From Clostridiales bacterium (lineage in GTDB: Bacteria; Bacillota; Clostridia; TANB77; CAG-508): a stretch of DNA of 61,764 nt. The notes under the pieces are model-generated. The model saw only the letters and a list, made by a program, of their open reading frames with translations. It made no database searches and was not told the DNA's origin. Shown one piece after another: positions 2,123-32,054 of the stretch. Position 1 is the stretch's first letter, and every line of letters starts with the position of its first letter. Both the position numbers and the translations under genes were made by a program. The stretch spans positions 1 through 61,764 of the forward strand of contig SFKP01000006.1 in the NCBI GenBank assembly GCA_004553715.1, given 5' to 3'.

Positions 2123-2210
2123 GCCAAGAGGGACGGGGAATTTTGGCACTAATTTGCCAAGAGGGACGGGGAATTTTGGCACTAATTTGCCAAAAGGGAC
2201 AGACCTTTTG
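2123..2210 (+). repeat. 33-bp tandem repeat (about 2.5 units), each unit able to form a GTGCCAA/TTGGCAC hairpin
   Basis: GCCAAGAGGGACGGGGAATTTTGGCACTAATTT is repeated head-to-tail at 2123-2155 and 2156-2188, followed by a degenerate third unit. Confidence 0.8.
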
Positions 2211-2279
2211 TTCAAAAAATGTCAAAAAACCGACAGCAAGATGAAGCGGATTATATATTAATTAGTCTGAACTTCTAAC
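2210..2279 (+). mobile_element. MITE copy A (internally deleted, ~70 bp)
   Basis: Keeps GTTCAAA at the left end and CCGACAGCAAGATGAAGCGGATTATATATTAATTAGTCTGAACTTCTAAC at the right, matching the right half of copies B and C. The left arm and loop are missing. Confidence 0.7.
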
Positions 2280-2309
2280 ACTAACATTTAAACTTTTTTT
2301 GTAAAATGC

Positions 2310-2339
2310 TTGACAAAAGTTACTTTTAAGTGATAATAT
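2310..2339 (+). promoter_or_regulatory. sigma-A-type promoter (extended -10) for rpoB-rpoC
   Basis: TTGACA (2310-2315), 18-nt spacer, TGATAATAT with TAATAT at 2334-2339. Implies a ~360-nt leader. Confidence 0.55.
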
Positions 2340-2698
2340 ATTATGGCACGAAAATTTGAAAAAATATAGTAAAATGGTGATTAAAATAGTAAAAAGTATT
2401 AACATAGGTATTAATTAAATAAGTAAAGTGTAGGGAAACATTAAATTAAAAATGTGAAAAATCTTCCTACACTTTTGTACGTGCTATTTTACTTATTAAT
2501 TTGATTTTTAAATTATATAAAGAGGAATTAAATATTATTTTTAGGTTATGTAAGTCGTAGGTCCGTAGGGCAGTAAGGATCAACACTTTATAATACATTA
2601 ATATTTAAGAGGGACTTTGTATAATAAAAAAATTAGAAATTAGAAAATAAAAAGCTAATTTCTATATAGATATATCTGCTCAGAATAAATTATAGGAG

Positions 2699-5600
2699 TT
2701 GATTTTTTTGTTAAAAGACATGGAATGTGGAAAAGCACAAAGGAAAACTTTTGCAAGAACTGGCGATTTCGTTGATATCCCAAATCTTATAAAAGTTCAA
2801 AAAGATTCTTACGATTGGTTTGTAAAAGAAGGGTTAGGAGAAGTATTAAAAGATATTTCACCAATAGAAGACTATTCCGGAAACCTAGTTCTAGAATTTT
2901 TCGATTACTATATGGAGGATACAACAAAATATTCTCTAGAAGAAGCTAAAGAGAGAGATGCAACATATTCTACAAGATTGCATGTTAAAGTAAGGCTTAT
3001 AAATCGTGAAACAGGCGAAATTAAAGAACAAGAAATATATCTTGGAGATTTTCCACTTATGACAGATAGTGGTACATTTATTATAAATGGAGCAGAAAGA
3101 GTAGTAGTAAGTCAATTAGTTAGATCACCAGGTTGCTATTATGAATATGATTATGATAAAACAGGCAAGAAATTGTACAAGGCTACAGTTATGCCTATTC
3201 GTGGTGCATGGCTAGAATATGAAACCGATGCTAATGATGTTTTTTATGTAAGAATAGATAGAACCAGAAAATTACCTGTAACAGCACTTTTAAGAGCATT
3301 AGGACTAGCTACAGATGATCAAATAATAAGCTTATTTGGAGAAGAAGACCAAATACTTGCAACAATTGCAAAAGATACAATAAAAACAGCTGATGAAGCA
3401 ATTGTTGAAATATATAAAAAATTAAGACCAGGAGAACTTCCAACAGTTGATGCTGCAAGGAATTTATTTAATGGATTATTCTTTGATGCAAAAAGATATG
3501 ATTTAGCAAAAGTAGGAAGATATAAATACAATAAAAAATTAAATTTAGCAACAAGAATTACAAACCAAGTTGCTTATGAAAACATATTAAACAGTGAAAC
3601 AGGTGAAATCATTGTTGAAAAAGATAACGTAATTTCTAAAGAACAAGCACTTGAAATACAGAATTCAGGAATAAATATTGTTGATGTTAAAGTTAATGAC
3701 AAAAAGATAAGAATTATAGGAAATGGTACAGTAGATATTCATGCATTTGTTGATATAAAAGACTTAGGTATAAAAGAATTAGTAAATTATGAAGTATTAA
3801 AAAATATTTTAGAAACAACAAATAAAAAAGATTTAAAGAAAGTTATAGAAGAAAGAAAAGAAGAATTAGTGCCAAAACATATTACAACAGAAGATGTTTT
3901 AGCTTCAATTAACTATTTATTGAATTTACAATATGGCTTAGGAAATGTTGACGATATTGACCATTTAGGAAACAGACGTATTCGTTGTGTTGGTGAGCTA
4001 TTACAAAATCAATTTAGAATTGGTTTAACAAGATTAGAAAGAGTTGTAAGAGAAAGAATGACGATTCAAGACTTAGATGTTATAACACCACAAACATTAA
4101 TCAATACAAAACCAATAACATCAGCAATTAGGGAGTTTTTTGGAAGTTCACAATTATCACAATTTATGGACCAAACAAATCCACTTTCAGAATTAACACA
4201 TAAAAGAAGAATTTCAGCATTAGGACCTGGAGGATTATCTAGAGAAAGAGCAGGATTTGAAGTTCGTGATGTTCATTATACACACTATGGAAGACTTTGC
4301 CCAATAGAATCTCCAGAAGGACCAAACATAGGATTAATATCTGCATTATCAACATTTGCAGTTATCAATGAATATGGATTTGTTGAAACACCATTTAGGA
4401 AAGTAGATCCAAAAACTCATAGAGTAACAGACGAAGTGGAATATATGGCAGCAGATGAAGAAGATGGATATATTATAGCTCAAGCTTCAGAACCTCGTGA
4501 TGAAAATGGAGCATTTATAAATAAAAAAATAAAAGTAAGATATTTAGATGAAATCATAGAAGTAGAAAGAGAAAAAGTAGATTATATAGATGTATCACCA
4601 AAACAATTAGTTTCAGTAGGTGCAGCTATGATACCTTTCTTAGAGCATGATGATGCAAACCGTGCATTAATGGGAGCAAACATGCAACGTCAAGCAGTTC
4701 CACTTATGATTACAGATTCACCAATAGTTGGAACAGGTATTGAATACAGAGCAGCAAAAGATTCTGGAATAACAATACTTGCAAAAGAATCAGGTGTAGT
4801 ACAAAAAGTTACTGGTGATGAAATTATAATAAAAACAAAAACAGGAATTGATACATACAAATTACGCAAATTCAAAAGAACAAATGGTGGTACATGTATT
4901 AACCAAAAACCAATAGTAGTAAAAGGCGAAGAAGTTAAAGAAGGAGATGTTATTGCAGACGGACCATCTACGCAAAATGGAGAAATGGCATTAGGTAAAA
5001 ATGTTCTTATAGCATTTACAACTTGGGAAGGTTACAACTACGAGGATGCTGTTTTACTAAGTGAAAGATTGGTTAAAGAAGATGTTTATACATCAATACA
5101 TATTGAAGAATATGATTGTGAATGCCGTGATACAAAATTAGGAGCAGAAGAAATCACAAGAGATATACCAAATGTTGGAGAAGATGGACTAAAAGATCTT
5201 GATGAAAATGGTATTATAAGAATTGGTGCAGAAGTAAGACCTGGAGATATCTTAGTAGGGAAAGTAACTCCAAAAGGAGAAACAGAATTAACTGCAGAAG
5301 AAAGGTTACTTCGTGCAATCTTTGGTGAAAAATCAAGAGAAGTTCGTGATACTTCATTAAAAGTACCACATGGAGAAGCAGGAACAATAGTAGATGTAAA
5401 AATATTTACAAGAGACAATTCAGATGAATTAGCACCAGGAGTAAACCAAGTAATAAGAGTATATATTGCTCAAAAGAGAAAAATATCAGTTGGTGATAAA
5501 ATGGCTGGACGTCATGGAAACAAAGGTGTTGTTTCAAGAATATTACCAGTAGAAGATATGCCATTTATGCCAGATGGAACACCTGTAGATGTTGTTTTAA

Positions 5601-6397
5601 ACCCACTTGGTGTACCTTCACGTATGAATTTAGGCCAAGTTTTAGAGGTTCACTTAGGAGCAGCAGCAAGATTGCTTGGATTAAAAGTTGCAACACCAGT
5701 ATTTGATGGTGCAAGAGATGAAGATATATTAGAAATGTTAAAAGAAGCAGGATTATCAGAGGATGGAAAAACAACACTTTATGATGGAAGAACAGGAGAA
5801 CCTTTTGACCAACCAGTTACTGTTGGTGTAATGTATATGCTTAAACTTCACCATCTAGTAGATGATAAGATCCATGCTCGTTCAACAGGACCATACTCAT
5901 TAGTAACACAACAACCTCTTGGTGGTAAAGCACAATTTGGTGGACAACGTTTCGGAGAGATGGAAGTTTGGGCATTAGAGGCTTATGGTGCAGCATATAC
6001 ACTTCAAGAAATATTAACAGATGATGTTATAGGAAGAGTAAAAACTTATGAAGCAATTGTTAAAGGCGAAAATGTTCCAGAACCAGGAGTTCCAGAAAGC
6101 TTTAAAGTATTAATAAAAGAACTTCAAAGTTTAGGACTAGATGTTAGACTATATTCAGAAAATGATGAAGAACTTGAATTAAGCGAAAATATAGAAGATG
6201 GAATAGACTTTAATTTAGATGATGCAAAAAACATTTTATCAGAAGAACTTGCAATTGATAAAGATGATGAAATAATGGAAGAAGAAAACTTAGAAGAGCT
6301 AGATGAAGAAGATATGGACTTCTTAGAAGAAGACGATATTTTAGATGATGGCTTAGATGATGAAGATATTGCAAATGATGATATTATAGATGAGTAA
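2699..6397 (+). CDS. rpoB: DNA-directed RNA polymerase subunit beta
   Basis: 1232-aa ORF with [15 protein letters not shown] and NMQRQAVPL motifs. The ORF-track start TTG 2699 abuts the AGGAG at 2695-2698, so TTG 2708 or ATG 2720 are more plausible starts. Confidence 0.97.
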
Positions 6398-6504
6398 AAT
6401 AATTAAATAGAAAAGCATAATAAGATTAAATGACAGTAAAATTTGTTCGAGCAATGTTTATATTTAATTAAAAATGCAAAAATTTTTAAATAGGGGGTAA
6501 CTTA

Positions 6505-9500
6505 ATGGAGAACAATCAAAATCAAGATGAATTAGCAGTTTTTGATAAAATAAAAGTAGGTCTTGCATCTGATGAGAAAATAAGAGAATGGTCAAGAGGA
6601 GAAGTAAAAAAACCAGAAACCATTAATTATAGAACTTTAAAACCAGAAAAAGATGGTCTATTTTGTGAGAAAATATTTGGACCAACAAAAGACTGGGAAT
6701 GCCATTGTGGTAAATATAAAAGAATAAGATATAAAGGCATAATTTGTGATAGATGTGGAGTAGAAGTAACAAAATCAAAAGTTAGACGTGAGAGAATGGG
6801 ACATATTGAACTTGCATCTCCAGTAGCACATATTTGGTATTTTAAAGGAATTCCAAGCAGAATATCTTTAATATTAGATATGTCTCCAAGAAGCCTTGAA
6901 AAAGTAATATATTTTGCAGCATATGTTGTAATAGATAAAGGAACTTCAGGATTAACAAAAACACAAGTATTAACAGAAAAAGAATATCGTGAAGCTGAAG
7001 AAAAATACGGAAAAGGCTCATTTACAGCAAAAATGGGAGCAGAAGCTATAAGGACTTTATTAAAAGAAGTTGATTTAGACAAATTATCAGAAAAATTAAA
7101 GAAAGAAATAGCAAAAGCAACCGAACAAAAAAAGGTTAAATTAGTAAAAAGATTAGATACTGTTGAAAGCTTTAGACTATCTGGAAATAAACCAGAATGG
7201 ATGGTAATGGGTGTTATACCAGTTATACCACCAGAACTAAGACCAATGGTACAATTAGATGGTGGGAGATTTGCAACATCTGATTTAAATGATTTATATA
7301 GAAGAGTAATTAACAGAAATAACAGATTAAAAAGATTATTAGAATTAGGAGCACCAGAAATAATTGTTAGAAATGAAAAAAGAATGCTTCAAGAATCTGT
7401 AGATGCTTTAATAGATAATGGTAGACGTGGAAGACCTGTTACAGGAGCTGGAAATAGACCATTAAAATCATTGTCAGATATGCTAAAAGGAAAACAAGGA
7501 CGTTTCAGACAAAACCTATTAGGAAAAAGGGTTGACTATTCAGGCCGTTCTGTTATAGTTGTAGGTCCAGAACTTAAAATATATCAATGTGGGCTTCCAA
7601 AAGAAATGGCAGTAGAATTATTCAAACCTTTTGTAATGAAAGAATTAGTAAGCCGTGGATTAGCACATAATATTAAAAATGCAAAAAGAATGGTAGAAAA
7701 ATTAAGACCAGAGGTATGGGATATATTAGAAGAAGTTATTGCAGACCATCCAGTAATGCTAAACCGTGCTCCAACACTACATAGACTTGGTATTCAAGCA
7801 TTTGAACCAGTTTTAGTAGAAGGAAGAGCAATAAAATTACACCCATTAGTTTGTACAGCATTTAACGCCGATTTCGATGGTGACCAAATGGCAGTACATG
7901 TTCCATTATCACCAGAAGCACAAGCAGAAGCAAGATATTTAATGCTATCTGTAAACAACTTATTAAAACCACAAGATGGTAAACCAGTTACAATTCCATC
8001 ACAAGATATGATTTTAGGAAGCTATTATTTAACAATGGAAGTTGGAGGAGAAAAAGGAGAAGGAATGTACTTCAAAGATGAAGAAGAGGCCCTTCTTGCT
8101 TACCAAAATGGTGACTTAGGTTTACATGCAAAAGTAAAAATAAGAATGAAAAGAGAAATAGATGGCGAAGAAAAAACTAAAACTATAGAAACTACAGTTG
8201 GAAAAGTTATATTTAACGAAGTAATACCACAAGATTTAGGTTTTGTTGATAGAACAGATCCAGAAAAAGAATTCGATTTAGAAATAGGATTCCCTGTAAT
8301 GAAGAAAAATTTAGGATCGATTATTGCAAAATGTATAGATAAACATGGATTAAATGTAACAGCAGAATTACTAGATAATATTAAATCTTTAGGATACAAA
8401 TATTCAACAAAAGGTGCAATAACAGTTTCAGTTTCAGATGTTGCAGTTCCACCAGCTAAAAAAGAAATATTAGCAAATTCTGAAAGACAAGTTGAAGAAA
8501 TTGCTAAACAATATAAACGTGGTTTAATTACTGATGATGAAAGATATTCATCAATAATTAAAGTCTGGGAAAAAGCAACAAATGATGTTACAGATGCAAT
8601 GGTTGCTAACTTTGATGAATTAAACCCAATTTATATGATGGCACACTCTGGAGCCAGAGGAGATATGGGACAATTACGTCAAATCGCAGGTATGCGTGGA
8701 CTTATGGCAAATACATCTGGTAAAGCAGTAGAAATACCAATTAAAGCTTGCTTTAGAGAAGGACTTGATGCACTAGAATATTTCGTTTCATCACATGGTG
8801 CAAGAAAAGGTTTAGCCGATATCGCTATCAGAACTGCTGACTCTGGATATTTAACAAGAAGATTAGTAGATGTATCTCAAGATATAATCGTAAGAGAAGA
8901 AGATTGCGGTACAGAAAGCTATATTGAAGTAGAAGATATTAAAGATGGAAATCAAATAATCGAAACTTTACATGAAAGATTAATAGGAAGATATCCAGCC
9001 GAAGACATTATTGACCCTACAACAGGCGAAGTAATTGTTGATAAAAATACATTAATTGTTCCAATGCTAGCAGATAAAATCATAGAAGCAGGATATACAA
9101 AAGTAAAAGTACGTTCAGTACTTGCTTGTAAAACAAAACACGGTGTTTGTGCTAAATGCTATGGAATGGGACTTGCAACAAGAAAACGAGTAAATATAGG
9201 AGAAGCGGTAGGAATTATTGCAGCACAATCAATTGGGGAGCCAGGTACACAGCTTACAATGAGAACTTTCCACTCTGGTGGTGTTGCAGGAGGAGATATT
9301 ACACAAGGTTTACCTAGAGTTGAAGAGATTTTTGAAGCTAGAAAACCAAAGGGATTAGCAACAATTTCTGAAATAGCAGGAACTGTTAAAATAGCCGACA
9401 ACAAGAAGAGAAAAGAAGTAACAGTAGTAGGAAAAGACGATGCCAAAACATATTTAATAAGTTTTGGATCTAAGATAAAAGTGAAAGATGGAGACGAAAT

Positions 9501-10101
9501 AGAAGCAGGAGCACCTATTACAGAAGGTTCAATTAATCCAAGCGAAATACTTGCAATAAATGGAGTAGATGGAGTATACAAATATTTAACAGCAGAAGTT
9601 CAAAAAGTGTATAGAAACCAAGGTGTTGATATTAACGATAAACACATTGAAGTAATTGCAAGACAAATGCTAAAAAGAATTAAAATTGAAGATGCAGGAG
9701 ATACAAGATTATTCCCAGGTTCATTAATTGACATAAATGAATTAAACAGCATTAATGAACAAATGGAAAAAGAAGGTAAAGAAAAAGCAACAGGTTCAAG
9801 AGTTCTTCTAGGAATAACAAAAGCATCACTTGCAACAGAAAGTTTCTTATCAGCAGCATCTTTCCAAGAAACAACAAGAGTATTAACAGAAGCAGCAATA
9901 AAAGGAAAGACAGATCCATTAATAGGATTAAAAGAAAATGTAATTATAGGAAAACTTATTCCAGCAGGAACAGGAATGTCATTATACAGAAATATAGGAA
10001 TAAATACAGAGAAAAAAGAAGAAGCCGTAGAAACAGTAACAACAGAAAAAGAGAATTCTAAAACAGAAGAAGCTTCAGAAACAATAAAAACACAAGAATA
10101 A
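6505..10101 (+). CDS. rpoC: DNA-directed RNA polymerase subunit beta-prime
   Basis: 1198-aa ORF with catalytic [10 protein letters not shown]-terminal Cys-rich zinc motif (CHCGKYK...CDRCG) and an AGGGGG RBS. Confidence 0.97.
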
Positions 10102-10109
10102 AACATCAA

Positions 10110-10143
10110 AACTATCTAACACAGATTGTTAGATAGTTTTTTG
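10110..10143 (+). terminator. rho-independent terminator after rpoC
   Basis: AACTATCTAAC (10110-10120) pairs with GTTAGATAGTT (10128-10138), followed by a T-run. Confidence 0.8.
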
Positions 10144-10185
10144 TTGCTGATGTATCTTAAAAAACATTATTTATTAATACTTTTT

Positions 10186-10328
10186 GTTAATGTTCAAACC
10201 CAAATTTTCAAATTAGTAGCTCCACGTATCGGTTTCACTTTTCTTTTCGTGCTTTAACCTAAGAAAAGAAAAGGACCAACCGACAGCAGGATGGAACGGA
10301 TTATATATTAATTATTCTGAACTGTAAC
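10186..10328 (+). mobile_element. MITE copy B (full length)
   Basis: Ends GTTAATGTTCAAA...TTCTGAACTGTAAC with a long central hairpin. Flanked by the direct repeat TACTTTTT (10178-10185 and 10329-10336), an 8-bp target-site duplication. Confidence 0.85.
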
Positions 10329-10441
10329 TACTTTTTTATATATTTAAATGAAAAATATTGAATAAGTTTCAGAATAATGTTAAAATAAAAATGCTAGTGT
10401 AAAAATCGACAAAAATATATATTATTTTTAAGGGGGATATC

Positions 10442-11389
10442 ATGAAAGATATTAAAATTTTTGCTTGTAATTCAGCAGAAGAATTCACGAAAGAAATATG
10501 TGATTGTTTAAATTTACCATTAGGAGAAAAAGATTCATTTAAATTTCAAAATGACAACAATTTTGTACAACTAAAAGAAACCGTTAGAGATCAGGATGTG
10601 TTTATTGTCCAAACAACAATGCCACCAGTAAACGAAAGAATTATGGAATTATTAATTACAGTAGAAGCAGCAAGAAGAGCTTCTGCTAGAAGAATAACAG
10701 TAGTGTTACCATACTTTATGTATTCAAGATCAGATAAAAAAGATCAACCAAGAATACCAGTAACAGCAAAATTAATGGCAAAATTATTAGAAGCAGCAGG
10801 GGTAGACAGAGTAATAACATGTGATTTACACAACCCAGCAATACAAGCATATTTTGATATAGCATGTGACAGATTAACTGCAAAACATTTACTAGAAAGA
10901 TATTTTAAAGAGAAAAATTTAAGTGACATAGTTGTCGTTGCAACAGATGCAGGAAGTTCTAAAAAAGCATATAAATATTCACACTATTTTGAATGTCCAC
11001 TTGCATTAATAGATAAAAGAAGAGATTCAAATAATGATAATGCAGTAGCAACAGGAATTATAGGAGATATAAAAGGAAAAACAGCATTAATTTTTGATGA
11101 TGAGGTAAGTACAGCAGGAACACTTATAGAAGCAGCATCTATTTTAAAGGCTCATGGAGCAAAAGAAATATATGCAGGTGCAACACACGGAGTACTAGTA
11201 GGCCCAGCAATAGAAAGAATAAAAAATTCAGACATAAAAGAACTAGTAGTAACAAATACTATTCCATTAGAACCAGAAAAAAGAATTGACAAAATAAAAG
11301 TTGTTTCAATTGCACCATTATTTGCAGAAGCAATCAGAAGAATAAACGAAGGGGAACCTATGGGAGACCTATTCGAATATGATAAATAA
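10442..11389 (+). CDS. prs: ribose-phosphate pyrophosphokinase
   Basis: 315-aa ORF with PRPP-binding loop IFDDEVSTAGTL, typical Prs N-terminus and a GGGGGA RBS. Confidence 0.93.
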   Translation: MKDIKIFACNSAEEFTKEICDCLNLPLGEKDSFKFQNDNNFVQLKETVRDQDVFIVQTTMPPVNERIMELLITVEAARRASARRITVVLPYFMYSRSDKKDQPRIPVTAKLMAKLLEAAGVDRVITCDLHNPAIQAYFDIACDRLTAKHLLERYFKEKNLSDIVVVATDAGSSKKAYKYSHYFECPLALIDKRRDSNNDNAVATGIIGDIKGKTALIFDDEVSTAGTLIEAASILKAHGAKEIYAGATHGVLVGPAIERIKNSDIKELVVTNTIPLEPEKRIDKIKVVSIAPLFAEAIRRINEGEPMGDLFEYDK

Positions 11390-11392
11390 AAA

Positions 11393-11440
11393 TGAAAAAA
11401 CAAAGGCGACTGATAAGTCGCCTTTACATATTTTTTTAAA
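11393..11440. terminator. bidirectional terminator between prs (+) and rpsU (-)
   Basis: AAAGGCGAC/GTCGCCTTT hairpin (11402-11425) with an A-run upstream and a T-run downstream. Confidence 0.75.
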
Positions 11441-11447
11441 ATATGTA

Positions 11448-11618
11448 TTAGAATCTTCTTTTCCTTGCTGCTTCTGATTTTTTCTTTCTTTTTACACTTG
11501 GTTTTTCATAATGCTCTCTTTTCCTAACTTCTTGTAAAACTCCATTTCTAACGCATTGTCTTTTAAATCTTTTAAGAGCATCTTCTATATTTCCATTATT
11601 AACTTTAATTTCTGCCAT
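11448..11618 (-). CDS. rpsU: 30S ribosomal protein S21
   Basis: [21 protein letters not shown]...[24 protein letters not shown] before the ATG at 11618. The ORF-track start at 11639 is upstream of the RBS. Confidence 0.9.
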
Positions 11619-11737
11619 TTTATTTCCCTCCCCCCACAATATATTGTGTATTTATCTCTATTGGGATTTAACTTTATATATTATAATATGAAATGGGCTT
11701 TACTGTCAAGTTTTTTATCAAAAATTATTCACTATTC

Positions 11738-11881
11738 GTTAATGTTCAGACCAAAATTTTCAAATTAGTAGCTCCACGTGTCGGTTGGACATTTTCTTTT
11801 CTTAGGCTAAAGCACGAAAAGAAAATGTCCAATCGACAGCAAGATGGAGCGGATTATATATTAATTAGTCTAAACTGTACC
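11738..11881 (+). mobile_element. MITE copy C (full length, central hairpin loop flipped relative to the other copies)
   Basis: Same ends and arms as copy B. 8-bp direct repeat CACTATTC at 11730-11737 and 11882-11889. Confidence 0.85.
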
Positions 11882-11975
11882 CACTATTCATTCTATTTTA
11901 TACTTAAGCAAAAACTTTAATACAATAACAAAAAAATGTAAATTTTCATAAAATATATATATTAGATTATATTTT

Positions 11976-12670: not shown

Positions 12671-12747
12671 AAAATACTTGTTCATAATGAAAAACTATGA
12701 TAAAATATAGCAAATATGTAATCTAGAAAGGAGCTAGAATTGTTTTT

Positions 12748-13194
12748 ATGAAAGTAATATTATTGCAAGATATAAAAGGAGTAGGAAAAAAAGATCAAAT
12801 AATTAATGCAAATGATGGATATGCAAGAAATTATTTGTTCCCAAAAAACTTAGGAATTGAAGCAACAAAAGAAAATTTATTAAAGCTTCAAGATAAAAAG
12901 AATTCGATAGCACACAAGAAGAATATTGAAATAGAAAAAAACAAAGAAATTGCAAAAAAGATAGATACAATTACTTTAAATCTTAAAGTAAAAGCTGGAG
13001 AAAATGGCAAAATATTTGGTGGAATAACAGCAAAAGAAATTTCTGAAGAGTTAAAAAAACAGCATGAAATTGATATTGATAAAAAGAAAATAATTTTGAA
13101 AGAAACAATAAAATTAATAGGAAGATTTGTAGTAGAAATTAAATTCGGAGATGGAATTATGGCAAAATTAAAGCTTAATATAATAGCAGAATAA
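12748..13194 (+). CDS. rplI: 50S ribosomal protein L9
   Basis: [37 protein letters not shown]-terminus, 148 aa. Confidence 0.93.
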
Positions 13195-13209
13195 AGATAG
13201 TAAAGGAAT

Positions 13210-21826: not shown

Positions 21827-21895
21827 AAAATATTATTTACAAAAACAAAAAAAGATTATATTATAATTATAGAAAAATTAGGAAGGAGAAGATAA

Positions 21896-23296
21896 ATGAC
21901 AGAAACAGAAAAATTAAAAGAATATTTATTTAATGAAAAAAAGTGCGGCTGGGACACAATATCAGAAGAAAAAAAGTTTGAGATAGACAAATTTTCTACC
22001 GAATATATGTATTTCTTAAATAAGTGTAAAACAGAAAGAGAATGCGCAGAATTCATAAAACAAATATTAGAAGAAAACGGATTTACCAATTTGAGAGATA
22101 AATTAGTTTTGCTTCCAGGAGATAAAGTTTACTATATGAATAGAAACAAAACTATTTATGCTGCTGTTATTGGAGAAAAACCAATAGAGGCAGGAATGAA
22201 CATAGTTGGATCACATATCGATTCTCCAAGATTAGATTTAAAACCAAACCCACTATATGAAGATATGGGCTTAGGATATTTAAAAACTCACTATTACGGA
22301 GGAATAAAGAAATATCAATGGACAGCAATTCCATTAAGTATTCATGGAGTATTTGTTAAAACAACAGGTGAAAAGATAGAAATAAAAATAGGAGAAGAAG
22401 AGAATGATCCTATATTTACAATTACAGACTTATTGCCACATTTGGCTCAAGAACAAATGGAAAAGAAGTTAAAAGATGGAATAGATGGAGAAAATTTAAA
22501 TTTACTTGTTGGCAGTGTTCCAATTGGCAATGAAACAATCTCTGAAAGAGTAAAATTAAATATTCTTAAAATATTAAATGACAAATATGGTATTGTAGAA
22601 AAAGATTTTATGAGTGCAGAGATAGAAATCGTACCAGCTTTTAGAGCAAGAAGCTTAGGTTTTGATAGAAGTATGGTGGCAGCTTATGGCCAAGATGATA
22701 GAGTATGTAGTTATTGTAATCTAAGAGCACTTTTAGAGGCTACAAAGCCAGAAAAAACTGCAGTTTCAATATTTGCAGACAAAGAAGAAATAGGAAGTAT
22801 GGGAAATACAGGAATGGAATCTCAAGTTTTTGATACATTTATTTCAGAATTGTTAAATAAAACAAATGAAAACAAACCAAATCTACTTCAAAAGGTATTT
22901 TGCAATTCTAAAATGTTATCAGCAGATGTAGATGCAGGAATGGACCCAATGTATTCAAATGTATCAGAAAAAAATAATAGTTCATATTTAGGACATGGAA
23001 TAGCTATGAACAAATACACAGGATCAAGAGGAAAAGCAGGAGCTTCTGATGCAAATGCTGAGTATGTTGCAGAAATAAGAAATATGTTAGAAAAAGCAAA
23101 TATAAAATATCAAATGGGTGAATTAGGGAAAGTAGATGAAGGTGGTGGAGGCACAATTGCATATATTTTAGCAAACAAAGGAATAGATGTTTTAGATTGT
23201 GGAGTACCAGTATTATCAATGCATGCACCTTATGAGGTGGTAAGCAAATTTGATATTTATGAATCATATAGGGCATATAAGGAGTTTTTTAAATAA
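21896..23296 (+). CDS. M18-family aminopeptidase
   Basis: 466 aa, [13 protein letters not shown] motif and C-terminal MHAPYE typical of M18/aminopeptidase I-like enzymes. Confidence 0.8.
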
Positions 23297-23316
23297 TAGA
23301 TTTAGGAGGAACAGAT

Positions 23317-24855
23317 TTGGCAGAAAAAGAACTAATATTAATAGTAAATTTTTATGGTCAATACAATCAATTAATTGCAAGAAGAGTAAGAGAATGTAAT
23401 GTATATTCTGAAATAGTGCCATATAAAATATCTATAGAAGAAATAAAAGCAAAAAATCCAAAAGGTATAATTTTTACAGGTGGACCTGCAAGTGTATATG
23501 AAGAAGGAGCACCTAAATGTGATAAAGAAATATTTAATTTAGGAATTCCAATACTTGGAATTTGCTATGGAATGCAACTTATGACAAATACTCTAAATGG
23601 AGAAGTTCAAAGGGCAAATAAAAGAGAATATGGAGAAACAAATGTACAAATAGATAATGATTCAAAGCTTTTCCAAGGACTAGAAGAAGAAAATATTTGC
23701 TTAATGAGTCATACGGATTTTGTAGCAAAAGTGCCAGAAGGTTTTAAAAAAATTGGAAGCACAGAAAACTGCCCAATTGCAGCAATGGAGAATGAAGAAA
23801 AAGGATTTTATGGAATTCAATTTCACCCTGAAGTAAATAACACAAAAAATGGTATAAAGATAATTAGAAATTTTATATATAGAGTTTGTAAATGTAAAGG
23901 TAATTGGACAATGTCTTCATTTACAGAAACAAAGATAAAAGAATTAAAAGAAAAGATTGGAGATAAAAAAGCCTTATGTGCATTATCTGGAGGAGTTGAT
24001 TCTTCTGTTGCGGCAGTTTTATTACATAAAGCAATAGGAAAAAACTTAACATGTATCTTCGTTGACCACGGACTACTTAGAAAAAACGAAGGAGACGAGG
24101 TAGAAGAAATCTTTAAGAATCAGTTTGATATTAATCTAATAAGAGTGAATGCTGAAGAGCAATTTTTAAATAAGCTACAAGGAGTAACTGACCCAGAAGA
24201 AAAAAGAAAAATAATAGGGGAAGAATTTATAAGAATCTTTGAAGCTGAGGCTAAAAAAATAGGTAAAGTAGATTACTTAGTACAAGGCACAATTTATCCA
24301 GATGTAATAGAAAGTGGACTTGGAGAGGCAGCTACAATAAAAAGCCATCATAATGTTGGTGGACTTCCAGAGCATGTAGATTTTACAGAAATTATTGAGC
24401 CTCTACGCGATTTATTCAAAGACGAAGTGCGTGTAGCTGGATTAGAATTAGGTATACCAGAAAATTTGGTGTATAGACAACCATTTCCAGGACCAGGCTT
24501 AGGAATAAGAGTAATTGGAGAATTAACAAAAGAAAAACTAGATATCTTAAGAGATGCAGATTATATATTTAGAGAAGAAGTAAAAAATGCAAATTTAGAT
24601 AAAGAACTAAACCAATATTTTGCAGTATTAACAAATATAAAAAGTGTTGGAGTTATGGGAGATTGTAGAACTTATGATTATACAATAGCTTTAAGAAGTG
24701 TAAAAACAACAGACTTTATGACAGCAACTTGGTCAAAAATTCCGTATGAAATATTGGAAAAAGTTTCCAGCAGAATTATAAATGAAGTAAAACATGTAAA
24801 TAGAGTTGTTTATGATATAACAAGTAAACCACCAGCAACAATAGAGTGGGAATAA
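23317..24855 (+). CDS. guaA: GMP synthase (glutamine-hydrolysing)
   Basis: GATase CYGMQ, PP-loop SGGVDSSV, C-terminal ...[12 protein letters not shown] start after GGAGGA. Confidence 0.96.
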
Positions 24856-24875
24856 AAAATATTTTAATCATATAA

Positions 24876-24912
24876 ATCACCTTGTTTAATAATATTAAAC
24901 AAGGTGATTTTT
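24876..24912 (+). terminator. terminator after guaA, overlapping the RBS and start of the next gene
   Basis: ATCACCTTGTTTAA (24876-24889) pairs with TTAAACAAGGTGAT (24895-24908), then TTTTT. Confidence 0.7.
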
Positions 24913-26139
24913 GTGAAGAAGAAAATAGCTATAATGCTAATATTTATACTTATTATGGTTTTGCCGTTTCAAATACTTGCACAAGATGATGAAGAAACAG
25001 ATTATATTTGGCTAAAGCAAGAGATTGAGATTGCACAAAATATAAAAGAACCTGTTATATATTCAAAATCAGCAGTAATATATGATAGAGGAAGCAAAAC
25101 CATATTATATGGTAAAAACGAACATGAAAGGTTGCCTATGGCTTCAACTACAAAGATTATGACAGCAATAATTTTAGTAGAAAATGTGAGTGATTTAAGC
25201 AAAGAAATTGAAGTAGTAAAAGAAGCAGCAATGGTGGGAGGGTCATCATTAGAATTGAAAACAGGAGATAAAATTACTTACGAAGGGCTTTTATATGGGC
25301 TATTATTGTGCTCTGGAAATGATGCTGCAGCACAAATTGCAATAAGTATGGCAGGAAGCATAGAAGAATTTGCAGACCTAATGAATGCAAAAGCCTATTC
25401 ATTAGGTTTAAAAGATACACATTTTATTACTCCACATGGATTAGATGAAGAAGGTCACTATACTACTGCTTATGAACTGGCTGTTATTGCAGACTACGCA
25501 TTAAATATGCAAAAAATTGCTGAAGTGGTTTCAACAAAAAATTATACAATAGCTGTAAATGGATACCCAAGAGCACTTACGAATACAAATGAATTATTAG
25601 GTTATTTAGAAGGAGTAAATGGAGTAAAAACGGGATTTACACATAATGCAGGCAGATGTTTAGTAACATCTGCTATAAGAGATAATTTTAATATAATAAC
25701 TGTTGTATTAGGAGCAGACACAAAAAAGATCAGAACAAGAGACTCAATTAATCTAATAGAATATGTATATAAAAACTATAAACTAATTAATTTAGAAGAT
25801 AGAGTAGAAGAGGCATATCAAAATTGGAAACTAGTAAACGAAAACAGAATAGAAATAACAAAAGGCATACCAACAAGCAAAATAGAAGTAAAACTTGGAA
25901 AAATCAAATATACGAAATATCCAATCAGAAAAGAAAGCTTAGAAAATATTAATATAGACATAAAAACATATAAATTAAAGCTAAACGCACCAGTAAAAGA
26001 AAACTACCAACTTGCAAACATCATAATAAGCATAGACAACAAAGAAATTATGAGAGTACCAATCGAAATAAAAAAAGAAATAGCAAAAAAAGGAATAAAA
26101 GAATATATAATTGAAACACTAGAACTGCTTTCAAATTAA
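24904..26139 (+). CDS. serine-type D-Ala-D-Ala carboxypeptidase (S11, PBP5-like)
   Basis: Signal peptide, SxxK (ASTTK), SxN (SGND) and KTG (KTGFT). Likely start is GTG 24913 after AAGGTG. Confidence 0.88.
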   Translation: MIFVKKKIAIMLIFILIMVLPFQILAQDDEETDYIWLKQEIEIAQNIKEPVIYSKSAVIYDRGSKTILYGKNEHERLPMASTTKIMTAIILVENVSDLSKEIEVVKEAAMVGGSSLELKTGDKITYEGLLYGLLLCSGNDAAAQIAISMAGSIEEFADLMNAKAYSLGLKDTHFITPHGLDEEGHYTTAYELAVIADYALNMQKIAEVVSTKNYTIAVNGYPRALTNTNELLGYLEGVNGVKTGFTHNAGRCLVTSAIRDNFNIITVVLGADTKKIRTRDSINLIEYVYKNYKLINLEDRVEEAYQNWKLVNENRIEITKGIPTSKIEVKLGKIKYTKYPIRKESLENINIDIKTYKLKLNAPVKENYQLANIIISIDNKEIMRVPIEIKKEIAKKGIKEYIIETLELLSN

Positions 26140-26284
26140 AAAGACCAAGGGACACATTCAGACACTGGGACTTAAGTTTTTGTCTAGCAGTTTTCAGACA
26201 TTTCAGCAAAAAAAGAATATTTTTTTATTATATAGGAAAAGTACTGAAAGCACTGTATTTTTATTTTGAAAATTAAGACATATA

Positions 26285-26328
26285 AAAAACGATAAAATAT
26301 TGATATTTCAACATTTTATCGTTTTTTG
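26285..26328 (-). terminator. bidirectional hairpin terminator downstream of the tRNA pair
   Basis: AACGATAAAAT (26288-26298) pairs with ATTTTATCGTT (26313-26323), flanked by an A-run and a T-run. Confidence 0.75.
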
Positions 26329-26330
26329 TT

Positions 26331-26405
26331 TGGAGGCGACACCCGGATTTGAACCGGGGAATCGGAGTTTTGCAGACTCGTGCCTTACCACTTGGCTATG
26401 TCGCC
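26331..26405 (-). tRNA. tRNA-Cys (GCA), CCA encoded
   Basis: The reverse complement GGCGACATAGCCAAGTGGTAAGGCACGAGTCTGCAAAACTCCGATTCCCCGGTTCAAATCCGGGTGTCGCCTCCA folds as a cloverleaf: 7-bp acceptor, CTGCAAA anticodon loop, TTCAAAT T-loop. Confidence 0.92.
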
Positions 26406-26422
26406 ATAAATTCAAAAAAATG

Positions 26423-26498
26423 TGGAGCGGGAAACGGGGCTCAAACCCGCGACCTATGCCTTGGCAAGGCATCGCTCTATCAACTGAGCTATTCCCGC
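26423..26498 (-). tRNA. tRNA-Gly (GCC), CCA encoded
   Basis: The reverse complement GCGGGAATAGCTCAGTTGATAGAGCGATGCCTTGCCAAGGCATAGGTCGCGGGTTTGAGCCCCGTTTCCCGCTCCA has acceptor GCGGGAA/TTCCCGC and anticodon stem ATGCC/GGCAT with loop TTGCCAA. Confidence 0.9.
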
Positions 26499-26577
26499 AT
26501 GAATTATAAAGCAATTATTATAATAACAAAATAAATATAAAAAGTCAATACAAATTTACAAATAAAAACTGATTAAA

Positions 26578-26720
26578 GTTACAGTTCAGACTAGTTAATA
26601 TATAATCCGCTCCATCTTGCTGTCGGTTGGACATCTTCTTTTCTTAGGCTAAAGCTCGAAAAGAAAAGTGCAACCGACACGTGGAGTTACTAATTTGAAA
26701 ATTTAGGTCTGAACATTAAC
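26578..26720 (-). mobile_element. MITE copy D (full length, opposite orientation)
   Basis: Starts GTTACAGTTCAGA and ends TCTGAACATTAAC. Flanked by TGATTAAA (26570-26577) and TGGTTAAA (26721-26728), a 7/8 direct repeat. Confidence 0.85.
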
Positions 26721-26861
26721 TGGTTAAATATTAAATACAGCAGTTCTTTAAGAGATGCAGAAAAAGTTTTCTCCAATCTGAGGAGAAAAAAAGTACTATA
26801 TCCTGCAAGATAAAGTAATGCTATTAGCAAGTACAAAAGTGATATTTTTTTACATAATCTG

Positions 26862-26890
26862 TTGAAAAAAACGGTGAAATGTAGTATAAT
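26862..26890 (+). promoter_or_regulatory. candidate sigma-A promoter for the adhesin gene (~300-nt leader)
   Basis: TTGAAA (26862-26867), 17 nt, TATAAT (26885-26890). Confidence 0.5.
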
Positions 26891-27186
26891 AAATGCGTGT
26901 AGAGATTATGAAATTCTAAAAAACGACATTTTTATACAAAAAATTCAAATAATCTCTAAAGCATACGGAAATAAAGAAAAACAATATGTTATTTGAGAAA
27001 ACAGCTAAAATGTTATGCAAATGTCATATTTAAATATACAAATGAATATTTTTTTTGATAGCGTATTTCCTTAAGTAATTTTTTACTTATATAAATATAA
27101 TATGTGCGAGAAACCAATTTATGCTATTGAAAAATATAAAAAAATCAATATAATTAATATAATATATATATAAGGAAGGTATGTGT

Positions 27187-30100
27187 ATGAAGAAATTTAA
27201 AATTTTATTAGGATTACTTGTTTTTGTATTAACATTAAGTTTTTTAGAAATTAGAGTAAACGCAATAAACGAACCAATGATATTAAATATTAATGAAACA
27301 AGACCATTTAGTGATGATGATGGGGATGGAACAGTAGGAAATGACAAATATACAATATTTAGCAATCCAGCACAAACAATATTTAAGATAGGTGAACGAT
27401 TAGAAACAAGCGAAGAACTACAATACTTAAAAAGTTTATATTGTTTAAGATTTGGATTAGGTTTTGGTGCTGAAAATACAGACATACAAAATCTACAAGA
27501 CATTACATATAATAAATTGGGAAATCTAAAAACAAACGTAGATGAAATAATTGAATATTATACCAATACTGTTGGATACAATAACATAGATACAGAATAC
27601 ACATATATAGATACAGACAACGAAGAATATCTTTTTACACCATATAACTGTATTTTATGGTTAGCAGATAATATCGCTTTAATAAATGAAAATATTCAAA
27701 TTACAGATTCTGAAATTGTTGATTTATTAACAAATGCAGGAATATTTCCATTGCCACAAAACAACACATTAAAATTAACATTAGATGATATAGATGTTAT
27801 TCAGCAATGTGCCTTTTGGACATTTTCAAATTATGCAGGGTTTATAAAAGAAGATCAAGCTATAGATAACTTGTTAAAAATAAACACTTCAAATTTAGAT
27901 GAAATAGATACTACACGACAAAGAGGAAAGCAAGTAAAAAAATTATATGATTATTTAGTAACATCAGCTAAAAAAGGTGCAGCAAGCTATGGAACAGGAA
28001 ATGTAAGACCAATAAATGGAGAAGTGAATTTACCAGGAGTGGAATTAGAAACAACATTATCAGCAACAGTTTTTGAAAAAAGTTTTGAATATAATGGAAT
28101 AAGTAATTCGTATTATGTTGTAGGGCCTTTCAAATTAAACATTACAAATCCAAATGATTCTTGGAACATTGATGTCGTTCCTACATTTGGATATAAATCA
28201 ACAATTACGGCAACAGAATATACTATTATAAATAGAGCAATGTTAATAACAATAAATAATGAAGTCGTAACTAATTTTAATTATGATATTAAAGATGGTG
28301 AACAATTTTATGTGGCAATAAATAAAGATAGTATGGATGGAGCAACAATAGTTGAATTTAAATTGAGTATAGATTATACATATTCAAGAATAGATAGAAT
28401 TGCTACTTTATGGACTGCTGAACCAAGTGATCAACCAGTATTATTAGTAGAAGATGAGGTTATAGATGGTAATGGTAATACAGAAACAGTTGTAGAAAAC
28501 AGAAAACCAGACTTTGCACTTCGTAAATACATAACAAAAATAGAAAGAGATGGAGAAGAAGTAACTATAGCTTCAAGAGTTCCAGTTCCAGATACATCTA
28601 CACTTACAACAGGAGAATCAACAACAGCAATATATAAACACTTAAAAACGCCAGTAGAAGTAAAAACAGGAGATATTGTTACTTATACAATAGCGGTATA
28701 TAATGAAGGAAATATAGAAGGTAGAGTAACGAAAATAACAGATTATATACCAGCAGGATTAGAATATGATGCTACATTAAATACGGATATTACTGCAAAT
28801 TTAGATGGTAACAAACTAGAAATAACATTAAATGGAAATAATTTACCAGCTTTTACAGGGGAAGGAATATCAAGCACATCGGTTAGTGTCAAATTAAGAG
28901 TAACAGCAACACAAAATCAAAAAGATCAAGTATTTACAAATATAGCAGAAATATCGGCGTTTGCACTAGAAGGAGAAGAAATAAATTCAGATAGAGATTC
29001 AACGCCAGATAATTTAGAAATGCCAACAGATTTAGAAAACTATTGGGGAACAGACATAATCCAAGGTTTAACAGAATCAGAAAATTATTATGTAGGACAA
29101 GAAGATGATGATGACTTTGAAAAAGTATTTATAAGAGGAGTAAATGCAGACTTTGCGCTTCGTAAATATATAACAAGAGTAGAAAGAAATGGAGAAGAAG
29201 TAATAATTTCATCAAGAGTACCATCTATTGATTTTTCAAATATAAAACCAACAAAAGATATGGCAAGAGAAACAACAGCAACATATAAACACTCAAAGAA
29301 ACCAGTAGAAGTGAAAACAGGAGATATTGTTACATATACAATAGCTGTATATAATGAAGGGCAAATAGAAGGAAAAGTAACAGAAATTATTGATTACTTA
29401 CCAGATGGAATAGAGTTTGTACCAGAAAAAAACCCAGATTTTGTTGCAGTAAGAGATGGAGACGACATACAAAACTTAAGTGAAGATGATATACAAGAAA
29501 TACTACAAGAAGCAGAAACTACTAAAAAATACTTATATCAAATATTAGATAACAAATTAATAATAAAATATTTAGAAGAATATACATTAAATCCAATAAC
29601 TGCAGACACAGATAAATTAGATAGCAAGGAAATAAATATAGTATGTAAAGTAATTGCTATCGAGCAAGAAGCAGATTTAGTATTAACTAATATGGCAGAA
29701 ATATCTGAATACGAAGTAGAAGGAGATATAGAGGATAGAGATTCAAAACCAAACTATCCAGCAATACCAACAGACTTAGAAAACTATTGGGGAACAAATA
29801 TAATTCAAGGTGAAACAGAATCAGAAAATTATTATGTAGGACAAGAAGATGATGATGATTTTGAAAAAGTAGTAATAAAAGGAGCAAATTTTGACTTAGC
29901 ACTTCGTAAATTTATTTCATCAATCAAGAGAAATGGAGAAGAAATTCTAGACGAAGATAGATCTCCTGAAGTAGATATAAGTACACTTACAACAACTACA
30001 ACAGCAAGTTATACACATTCAAAAGATGCAGTAACAGTAAAAACTGGAGATATCGTAACATATACTCTAAGGGTATATAATGAAGGAGAACTTAATGGAT

Positions 30101-31851
30101 ATGTTAATACTATTACAGAACATATTCCAGAAGGATTAGAGTTCATTCTAGATAGTGATGTAAATACAACATATATGTGGACATTTGAAAATGTACTAAA
30201 TATAAATATAATAAATACAAATTATTGGTCTAAGGCTCGTACAGATAATGGAGAAGTAGAAGGACTACTAAAAGGATATGATGGAGGAAGAGATTTAGAC
30301 TATAGAGATGTAAAAATAGAATTTAAAGTAATTGCACCAAATACATATGAAAATGAAATAGTAAATATTGCAGAAATTTCAAATTCAGTTGCAGTAAATG
30401 AAAATAATCAAATATTAAATATTAGTGATAGGGACTCTGTAAATCCGGTAAATATTGAAAATTATATATTAAAACCAGCACCAGAAAATAGTACTTATCA
30501 AGAAGATGATGATGATTATGAAAGATTACAAGTTAGATACTTTGACTTAGCTTTACGTAAATTTATTACAGCTGTAAATGAAACTGAAGTAACATCAAGA
30601 ATACCAGAAGTAGTGTTAAATGAAGAAACAGGAGATTTAGAATATATACATGATAAAACACCGGTAGAAGTAGTAAATGCAGATTTAGTAACATATACAA
30701 TAAGAGTATACAATGAAGGTTCAATTGCAGGATATGCTGAAGAAATAGTAGATGATATACCAGCAGGACTTGTATATATTCCTACAAATACAGTAAATAA
30801 AAGTTATAGATGGAAGATGTTAGATAGCCAAGGAAATGAAACAGAGAATGTAGAAGAAGCAGTAAGGTTAACTACAGATTATCTATCAGAAGCATATGGA
30901 AACACTCTTATGAGTGATGAAGACAATATTAATCCAAACTTAATAAATCCATTTGATAGCAATTTACCAATAAGCAATATAGAACCATTTAACCCAGATT
31001 ATAGAGATGTTAAATTGGTATTCCAAGTAGATGATTCAGCTGTTCCAGTAGAAAATGAAGACAGAATTATTATAAATCATGCACAAATTGCAGAAGATAG
31101 TGATGATGATGAAGATTCAACTCCAGGAGAATGGATTGACGGTGAAGATGACCAAGATGTTGAAAGCATATATGTTAAAACTTTTGATTTAAGCTTACAA
31201 AAATGGGTAACAAAAACTATTGTGACAATAGATGGAGTAACGACTACGACAGAAACAGGATTTAAACCAAATGTAGGACTTACAGAACAAGAAGGAAGAC
31301 CAAATAACGAAAATGAGCCACTAGCACAAGTTGTAATTGACAAGAAAAAAATTAACAAAACGGAAGTAAAATTTGTATATTCAATAAGAGTAGCAAATGA
31401 AGGTGATATAGCTGGATATGCTACAGAAATTACAGATTATATTCCAGAAGGATTAAAATTTGTACAAGAAGATAACCCAATTTGGGAAAAGGTTGGAGAA
31501 ACAAAAATAGTAACCCATGCACTAGAAACAACATTACTAAATCCAGGAGAAAGCAAAGAAATCGAAGTTATATTTACTTGGATAAATGACGAGAACAATC
31601 TTGGAGTAAAAACAAATATTGCAGCAATTACTGCAGATTATAATGAATATGGAGATGCAGCAGATATCGATTCAACACCAGGAGATATAGATATTACACA
31701 ATATGATCACGAACAAGAAGATGATGATGATTATGCATTAGTAATATTAACAGTAAAAACTGGTGGGGGAAATTCATATATAGCAATAGGATTAGTTGTA
31801 ATTGCAATTATAGCAACAGGAATAGTACTTATTAAAAGATATGTATTATAA
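27187..31851 (+). CDS. large cell-surface adhesin: signal peptide, possible thioester-type N-terminal domain, five DUF11-like repeat modules, C-terminal membrane or sorting anchor
   Basis: MKKFKILLGLLVFVLTLSFLEIRVNA signal peptide. Five modules start D(F/L)ALRK(Y/F)I (from about nt 28510, 29150, 29893, 30543, 31186), each with TGDIVTYTI.VYNEG and (D/E)YIP.GLE. Modules are separated by DRDS.P...EDDDD acidic linkers. C-terminus is VKTGG + hydrophobic stretch + KRYVL. ATG 27187 is preferred over 27181 because the AAGGAAGG RBS ends at 27180. Confidence 0.8.
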   Translation: MKKFKILLGLLVFVLTLSFLEIRVNAINEPMILNINETRPFSDDDGDGTVGNDKYTIFSNPAQTIFKIGERLETSEELQYLKSLYCLRFGLGFGAENTDIQNLQDITYNKLGNLKTNVDEIIEYYTNTVGYNNIDTEYTYIDTDNEEYLFTPYNCILWLADNIALINENIQITDSEIVDLLTNAGIFPLPQNNTLKLTLDDIDVIQQCAFWTFSNYAGFIKEDQAIDNLLKINTSNLDEIDTTRQRGKQVKKLYDYLVTSAKKGAASYGTGNVRPINGEVNLPGVELETTLSATVFEKSFEYNGISNSYYVVGPFKLNITNPNDSWNIDVVPTFGYKSTITATEYTIINRAMLITINNEVVTNFNYDIKDGEQFYVAINKDSMDGATIVEFKLSIDYTYSRIDRIATLWTAEPSDQPVLLVEDEVIDGNGNTETVVENRKPDFALRKYITKIERDGEEVTIASRVPVPDTSTLTTGESTTAIYKHLKTPVEVKTGDIVTYTIAVYNEGNIEGRVTKITDYIPAGLEYDATLNTDITANLDGNKLEITLNGNNLPAFTGEGISSTSVSVKLRVTATQNQKDQVFTNIAEISAFALEGEEINSDRDSTPDNLEMPTDLENYWGTDIIQGLTESENYYVGQEDDDDFEKVFIRGVNADFALRKYITRVERNGEEVIISSRVPSIDFSNIKPTKDMARETTATYKHSKKPVEVKTGDIVTYTIAVYNEGQIEGKVTEIIDYLPDGIEFVPEKNPDFVAVRDGDDIQNLSEDDIQEILQEAETTKKYLYQILDNKLIIKYLEEYTLNPITADTDKLDSKEINIVCKVIAIEQEADLVLTNMAEISEYEVEGDIEDRDSKPNYPAIPTDLENYWGTNIIQGETESENYYVGQEDDDDFEKVVIKGANFDLALRKFISSIKRNGEEILDEDRSPEVDISTLTTTTTASYTHSKDAVTVKTGDIVTYTLRVYNEGELNGYVNTITEHIPEGLEFILDSDVNTTYMWTFENVLNINIINTNYWSKARTDNGEVEGLLKGYDGGRDLDYRDVKIEFKVIAPNTYENEIVNIAEISNSVAVNENNQILNISDRDSVNPVNIENYILKPAPENSTYQEDDDDYERLQVRYFDLALRKFITAVNETEVTSRIPEVVLNEETGDLEYIHDKTPVEVVNADLVTYTIRVYNEGSIAGYAEEIVDDIPAGLVYIPTNTVNKSYRWKMLDSQGNETENVEEAVRLTTDYLSEAYGNTLMSDEDNINPNLINPFDSNLPISNIEPFNPDYRDVKLVFQVDDSAVPVENEDRIIINHAQIAEDSDDDEDSTPGEWIDGEDDQDVESIYVKTFDLSLQKWVTKTIVTIDGVTTTTETGFKPNVGLTEQEGRPNNENEPLAQVVIDKKKINKTEVKFVYSIRVANEGDIAGYATEITDYIPEGLKFVQEDNPIWEKVGETKIVTHALETTLLNPGESKEIEVIFTWINDENNLGVKTNIAAITADYNEYGDAADIDSTPGDIDITQYDHEQEDDDDYALVILTVKTGGGNSYIAIGLVVIAIIATGIVLIKRYVL

Positions 31852-31898
31852 TGAATAAAAATATTGGCCTTACTTGATTTAAGTGAGGTCAATATCCT

Positions 31899-32024
31899 GT
31901 TACAGTTCAGATTAATTAATATATAATCCGCTCCATCTTGCTGTCGGTTGGACATTTTCTTTTCTTAGGCTAAAGCACGAAAAGAAAAGTGCAACCGACA
32001 CGTGGAGCTACTTTTGGTCTGAAC
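31899..32024 (-). mobile_element. MITE copy E (same orientation as D; short internal deletion and one shortened end)
   Basis: Starts GTTACAGTTCAGA and ends GGTCTGAAC. 8-bp direct repeat AATATCCT at 31891-31898 and 32025-32032. Confidence 0.85.
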
Positions 32025-32054
32025 AATATCCTTTTCAGAATGTAAATTGACATG

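Follow-up and report, generated by a model that had tools for sequence, protein, structure and literature searches.

How did a 61,764-bp stretch of a gut Clostridia genome come to carry the same palindromic sequence of about 140 bp in several of its intergenic regions? The stretch is contig SFKP01000006.1 of a 'Clostridiales bacterium' (assembly GCA_004553715.1), and is referred to here, at its full length, as the window. A preliminary description, made from the DNA letters alone, had proposed that five places in it hold copies of a transposable element of the miniature inverted-repeat kind (MITE) whose full-length copies are bordered by 8-bp target-site duplications. We read the five places directly, and reproduced the copies with their coordinates, terminal sequences and flanking 8-mers apart from the corrections given below; a profile hidden Markov model (nhmmer) built from the four full copies picked out these same places and gave no further match in the 61.8 kb of the window. 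As set out below, we consider it very probable (roughly 0.92) that the repeats are a genuine MITE, a 143-bp non-autonomous DNA transposon, belonging to an apparently undescribed family of a well-known kind.

Structure of the element

The consensus unit is 143 bp long and free of open reading frames (ORFs). Its termini, GTTAATGTTCAGAC and GTCTGAACTGTAAC, match as inverted repeats at 12 of 14 positions, positions 5-6 being AT at one end and CA at the other; the same pair can be written GTTAATGTTCAGAC / GTTACAGTTCAGAC. The terminal inverted repeats (TIRs) claimed in the preliminary description are thus present, although they form an imperfect repeat of 14 bp rather than one of 13 bp. They are kept, with subfamily variants, across the 23 distinct sites described in the next section, where their consensus is GTTAMWRTTCAGAC. 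The middle of the element forms a stem of ~23 bp (GTCGGTTGCACTTTTCTTTTC / GAAAAGAAAATGTCCAACCGAC), lengthened by GCTCCA/TGGAGC, around a loop of 14–15 nt, in good agreement with the ~22 bp and the same extension reported earlier. Folded as RNA, the copy that starts at 11738 (copies are named here by their start) reaches -49.8 kcal/mol, against -23.9 ± 3.6 kcal/mol for shuffled sequences (z = -7.25), while folding as DNA gives -26.2 kcal/mol (z = -6.0).

All five copies in the window are intergenic (Table 1). The GTTAATG end lies on the left in the 10186 and 11738 copies and is reversed in the 26578 and 31899 copies. The 11738 copy ends in GTACC instead of GTAAC and has an inverted central loop, and in the 31899 copy a 6-bp deletion between AAC repeats has removed the outer ATTAAC from the GTTAAT-end repeat, 11 bp of internal sequence being absent as well. 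The deleted copy previously placed at 2210 is real, but its bounds are closer to 2216–2279 and it is a right-half remnant, in which some of the right stem survives along with the AT-rich arm and a corrupted version of the right terminal repeat (TCTGAACTTCTAAC); no target-site duplication is recognisable around it, and it is also found in another assembly (L027).

One structural variant deserves separate mention. With the termini as reference, the loop is inverted in two of the four perfect-stem copies (left arm GGACA instead of GCAC), at 11802–11815 of the window in the 11738 copy and at 2688–2800 of locus L002, and in none of ~20 imperfect-stem copies. This looks like a hairpin-mediated 'flip-flop' inversion.

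Target-site duplications

All four flanking pairs of the preliminary description were confirmed, the pair of the 26578 copy with a single mismatch (Table 1). We then extended the comparison to 23 distinct full-length sites, drawn from the window, two metagenome-assembled genomes (MAGs) and 32 metagenome contigs after removal of orthologous duplicates. At 16 of the 23 sites the two 8-mers are identical at zero offset and at three more they agree at 7 of 8 positions, while the duplication extends to 9 bp at none (0/23); at the remaining four sites an end is truncated, the boundary is misplaced or the assembly is chimeric. As an example from outside the window, the full copy in the MAG 'Clostridia bacterium HGM13641' is bordered by AATATTTC/AATATTTC. 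When, as a control, the left 8-mer was compared with right-flank 8-mers at shifts of 8–31 bp (n = 552), perfect matches never occurred (0/552) and at least 7 matches occurred in 0.5% of cases; left and right 8-mers paired between different sites gave at least 7 matches in 0.8%. The 8-bp duplications thus far exceed chance expectation. Target sites are rich in A and T and show a weak preference for NANWTTTK.

Two doubts raised in the preliminary description can be addressed with the same data. The first, that the flanking 8-mers might not recur at other genomic copies, is answered by the duplications at independent copies in other assemblies. The second was that the element might be an internal part of a larger repeat or of an annotated non-coding RNA. 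Each copy has flanks of its own, and the similarity among copies breaks off precisely at the termini, which excludes a larger repeat, and no Rfam family matched. From the TIRs and the fixed 8-bp duplication we infer that a DDE transposase is responsible, one whose cuts are staggered by 8 bp and which acts in trans, because an element without coding capacity must be moved in trans.

Table 1. Copies of the element in the window, their flanking duplications and the anatomy of the 11738 copy.
Feature	Position	Strand	Remarks
Right-half remnant, degenerate	2216..2279	+	Between thrS and rpoB; nhmmer model positions 84-138, E=2e-12
Left duplication of 10186 copy	10178..10185		TACTTTTT
Full-length copy, 143 bp	10186..10328	+	Between rpoC terminator (10108-10140) and prs promoter-like site (10358-10386)
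Right duplication of 10186 copy	10329..10336		TACTTTTT
Left duplication of 11738 copy	11730..11737		CACTATTC
Full-length copy, 144 bp, perfect-stem variant	11738..11881	+	Between rpsU (minus strand) and 98-aa ORF
Left TIR of 11738 copy	11738-11751		Anatomy from DNA fold
Stem of 11738 copy	11779-11801 with 11816-11838		Anatomy from DNA fold
Loop of 11738 copy	11802-11815		Anatomy from DNA fold
Right TIR of 11738 copy	11868-11881		Anatomy from DNA fold
Right duplication of 11738 copy	11882..11889		CACTATTC
Duplication of 26578 copy	26570..26577		TGATTAAA; 7/8 match to partner TGGTTAAA
Full-length copy, 143 bp	26578..26720	-	80 bp from tRNA-Gly(GCC), upstream of 1556-aa DUF11 surface-protein gene
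Duplication partner of 26578 copy	26721..26728		TGGTTAAA
Left duplication of 31899 copy	31891..31898		AATATCCT; perfect despite lost outer 6 bp
126-bp copy	31899..32024	-	48 bp past DUF11 gene stop; same site in L012
Right duplication of 31899 copy	32025..32032		AATATCCT

Distribution and copy number

When a single genome from each GTDB species was scanned for the exact pattern, matches came from only two MAGs, 'Clostridia bacterium HGM13641' and 'Clostridiales bacterium W1P7.012', and a scan of metagenome contigs gave 32 loci, many of which end inside the element. Copies are 90–99% identical to the consensus and 82–100% identical to one another, and they fall into subfamilies whose terminal variants GTTAAT, GTTACA and GTTACT are swapped between the ends. 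The window itself is near-identical to contigs of many pig-gut, faecal and compost metagenomes.

The preliminary description had predicted a high genomic copy number, and we estimated this number from the Logan contigs of six metagenomes as the summed word depth on the element relative to single-copy flanks. In run X1 the flank has a depth of ~30 and the element one of 5000–9700; in X13 the corresponding values are ~90–170 and 30000–47000; and in X20, X9, X17 and X4 the ratio of element to flank is ~110–160 after correction for bin overlap. Indeed, with depths ~100–300 times those of the flanks in these six metagenomes, the prediction holds. These contig depths give about 100–300 copies per genome, a figure to which other host species may contribute, and the density in the window, one copy per 12–15 kb, is consistent with it.

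Two further observations concern the arrangement of the copies. Among the Logan contigs of X1 and X13 that match 26578–26721 and 11738–11879, one per run joins the right end of one element directly to the left end of another, head to tail, at single-copy depth (30.6 in X1 and 161.6 in X13); this junction is a fixed tandem pair or a dimer of the element. Locus L002, which has the same 8-mer at both ends and shares only ~140 bp of flank with L020, was weighed as a small circle.

Proposed mechanism and points against it

We propose that a DDE-type transposase, encoded elsewhere or since lost, would recognise the 14-bp TIRs and would insert the element into AT-rich, T-run-containing intergenic sites through cuts staggered by 8 bp, repair of the gaps leaving the 8-bp direct repeats. 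The element would in this way have been amplified to ~100–300 copies in one uncultured gut Clostridia lineage and would later have decayed, apparently neutrally, to its present 90–99% identity with the consensus. The long hairpin would be a by-product of the palindromic architecture and not a selected RNA, and nothing points to a function other than selfish spread.

Several results weigh against this proposal, and most of them concern the missing source of the transposase. The absence of a transposase from the window, already remarked upon in the preliminary description, was borne out by a Pfam scan of 30 large ORFs, none of which has a transposase domain. A regular-expression search of the window and of ~350 kb of related loci (34 loci; up to 2 mismatches) gave no solo terminal repeat, its only match being the locus-start end of L017, which lies inside an element fragment cut to 31 bp, and an all-against-all BLAST of the same ~350 kb gave no repeated segment of at least 400 bp. 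The element was unmatched in plasmids and phages by blastn, and viral contigs were free of it in a pattern scan. Synthetic queries modelled on a precise empty site, in which one 8-mer alone separates the two flanks, recovered none from any of the loci. Within the sample, identical copies were never met at two distinct sites, and current activity is therefore not demonstrated. Lastly, the copy-number estimate derives from metagenome contig depths and is possibly swelled by related species.

Other places where an autonomous relative could be sought gave a similar picture. The ORFs beside truncated copies, judged from their leading residues alone, look like ordinary genes, and the internal loose ends of the Logan contigs lead to a short-arm subfamily only, with no interior of an insertion sequence (IS). 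In the literature, the terminal-repeat strings were found solely as unrelated primers, and our literature searches on clostridial MITEs yielded nothing on this family.

A more ambitious version of the proposal can be formulated. It holds that the repeats are an orphan MITE with hundreds of copies, making up ~1–2% of a small genome, whose transposase belongs to a poorly characterised or uncharacterised IS group (for example the 'long' clostridial IS6-like group or a new one), and that, together with the palindromes of sister species, it plays a major part in shaping the intergenic regions, and in fragmenting the MAGs, of the lineage. We regard this version as unlikely.

Occupancy in strains and relatives

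The 10186 site is filled in the other assemblies examined (four places among 24 contigs, plus L043). Since both prs-adjacent sites are filled in the other examined assemblies of the species as well as in a strain with a 96%-identical Prs, these insertions are old and fixed. Further away, in L039 (GCA_045593405.1, Prs 87% identical), the rpoC-prs and prs-rpsU spacers lack the element family, and in L040–42 (Prs 90% identical) a divergent relative of the element lies upstream of prs in the other orientation. At the 26578 site, co-occurring strains in X9 and X4 have positions 26551–26845 replaced by 28 unrelated bases, so that the copy is absent; what these strains carry at 26550/26846 is a diverged allele and not a clean excision footprint.

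Some further features of strains and relatives were noticed. In X17 and X4, position 26801 follows directly on the element end at 26720, which means that 80 bp of adjoining flank are deleted in some strains. The rpoC-prs-rpsU spacers of L039 carry, at 2780–2960 and 3950–4520, several GC-rich palindromic repeats (TGTAGGGG...CCCCTACA), which are a different small repeat family in the same intergenic niches. In the sister species represented by L040, the divergent element upstream of prs has an extra insertion of ~70–83 bp (positions 28–96) that is absent from L041 (positions 1–30); it bears a palindrome of its own (CCCACCTTCACAATCAAAGATTGTGGGTGGG) and looks like a nested small element. Disruption of a gene by the element in L029 was also considered and ruled out, as the ORFs fail to fuse once the element is removed.

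Possible functions and other explanations

Could the element instead have been exapted, as a selected regulatory or structural module of RNA or DNA? Such a module might be a stabilising hairpin or a target of RNase III, a terminator, or an outward promoter in the AT-rich arm, and roles of this kind have precedents in the Correia/NEMIS elements (PMC2229807). The very stable RNA hairpin (-49.8 kcal/mol) would fit exaptation. However, when 20 copies were aligned and co-folded the covariation term was approximately zero: none of the 33 hairpin pairs shows a compensatory change (0/33), and the mutations break pairs or turn them into wobble pairs. Nor did Rfam 15 point to a known RNA, as only two tRNAs passed the thresholds in the window, the best sub-threshold matches on the element being generic microRNA-precursor hairpins with 16–28 bits versus thresholds of 41–144.

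With regard to a promoter, the right arm contains promoter-like hexamers, TCGACA-18-TATATT reading outward and GTTACA-17-TATAAT reading inward. The gene end that the right end of the element faces is a 5' end in 12 cases and a 3' end in 9, the corresponding counts for the left end being 14 and 8, and since this amounts to no orientation bias toward neighbouring genes (12 vs 9), selection for the hexamers of the AT-rich arm is disfavoured. The prs promoter and the rpoC terminator are independent of the element and are kept in relatives that lack it; the promoter-like site of prs at 10358–10386, for example, is conserved in such relatives.

The preliminary description had also asked whether copies are transcribed or act as terminators. 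Element sequence is indeed found in metatranscriptome contigs, while termination finds no support, there being no T-run behind the hairpin in either orientation. In contigs from four metatranscriptomes, depth summed over the element is just ~1–5 times that of neighbouring genes, compared with a DNA excess of more than 100-fold, which implies that for most copies either transcription is slight or recovery is poor. Taken together, these data make a selected function of the element very improbable.

We consider it more improbable still that the element is a palindrome of the REP/BIME kind that owes its spread to recombination or to a RAYT transposase (of the IS200/IS605-type tyrosine class). It is intergenic, palindromic and high-copy, as would be expected; related genomes carry other short GC-rich palindromes in the same spacers; and REPs also exceed 100 copies per genome (PMC2817692). 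REPs, however, are ~20–40 bp long, without such TIRs or a target-site duplication (PMC2817692), whereas the element is 143 bp long and has an exact 8-bp duplication at 16–19 of the 23 sites. Moreover, its copies show none of the regular alternation that characterises BIME arrays, and there is no Y1 transposase gene in the window. An assembly artefact or collapsed repeat can for practical purposes be dismissed, despite the many contigs that terminate within the element and the chimeric flank combinations at some loci (L020, L033), since the same copies with the same flanks recur in independent assemblies from different studies, more than 20 runs have these copies among their Logan contigs, and contig breaks are expected from a real high-copy repeat. 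Integron attC sites, suggested by the GTTA...TAAC ends, are ruled out by the 8-bp duplications. We therefore retain the MITE as the explanation for these repeats.

Genomic context

The window is chromosomal DNA of low GC content (~30%) and strong purine skew. Its genes are arranged in the order thrS, rpoB, rpoC, prs, rpsU, rplI, dnaB, tilS, ftsH, hydABC-like genes, guaA, tRNA-Cys, tRNA-Gly, the 1556-aa DUF11 gene and parAB. The long thrS-rpoB spacer contains, at 2150–2210 just upstream of the remnant, a short direct repeat, TAATTTGCCAA(G/A)AGGGAC...TAATTTGCCAAAAGGGAC. Within the DUF11 gene, strain variants skip or duplicate blocks of 651, 739 and 801 bp (28631–29283 and 29306–30087), consistent with copy-number variation of repeat domains. 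Downstream of parA/parB (34717–36437), the region 38000–61764 has a GC content of 22–28%, no copies of the element and many large ORFs without a Pfam match (520, 608, 2067, 311 and 508 aa, among others). The region is perhaps younger or acquired, but the lack of copies over 30 kb is not significant.

Comparison with known elements

The family described here, from an uncultured Clostridia bacterium of the pig and human gut, apparently has not been described before; it combines textbook features with a copy number that, for a Firmicute, is unusually high. It also accounts for the breaks in assemblies of this gut lineage, many contigs of which end inside it. The 143-bp consensus can serve as a probe for the responsible transposase, and filled and empty sites as a marker for strain typing. 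Concepts remain unchanged, as MITEs of this type are already well known.

Bacterial MITEs are defined as non-coding, AT-rich sequences of less than 200 bp with terminal repeats and target duplications (PMC2229807), and the element agrees with this definition; as is further expected of a MITE, it has many dispersed copies with unrelated flanks. Among known families it resembles RUP of Streptococcus pneumoniae, likewise a non-coding intergenic repeat of a Firmicute (107 bp, ~100 copies) that has TIRs and is proposed to be moved in trans by an IS transposase (PMC2229807). RUP, however, inserts at TA and shares its TIRs with IS630-Spn1, while our element generates an 8-bp duplication, has GTTA...TAAC termini and is without a matching IS in the sequences searched. 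The Correia/NEMIS elements of Neisseria resemble it in length (~100–160 bp), high copy number, intergenic location and transcripts with a long hairpin (PMC2229807), but differ in having a TA duplication, an integration host factor site and promoter or RNase III functions, in place of which we find 8 bp and no indication of such a function. The Rickettsia palindromic elements, too, are palindromes of comparable size (105–146 bp) with TIRs and predicted long stem-loops, yet they often lie in frame within genes, whereas all copies seen here are intergenic.

A MITE of the IS630/Tc1 type, like RUP and Correia, was rejected because these have TA duplications and TA at their termini, in place of the 8 bp and GTTA/TAAC of the element. 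Duplications of 8 bp are given by several other IS groups: the ends of the IS66 family start with GTAA and come with 8-bp duplications, and ISL3, IS256 and IS1595 also produce duplications of this length. The same holds for IS6/IS26 and for the 'long' clostridial IS6-like elements ISCpe7, ISCbo1 and ISTps1, and MITEs of the IS6/IS26 type, MITEBth2 and MITEHarch3, have been reported (PMC6807381). Our element has in common with the IS6-like group the 8-bp duplication, hosts among the Clostridia and a conserved G at position 7 of the terminal repeat (PMC6807381). No IS6/IS26-type transposase was found near any copy, and the IS6/IS26 consensus GGTTCTGTTGCAAA agrees with GTTAATGTTCAGAC at only 7 of 14 positions, the element starting with GT where IS6/IS26 starts with GG. 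Both nevertheless share G7 and TGTT in their termini, and a relationship with IS6/IS26, as suggested by these terminal letters, may be taken as a lead, not as an assignment.

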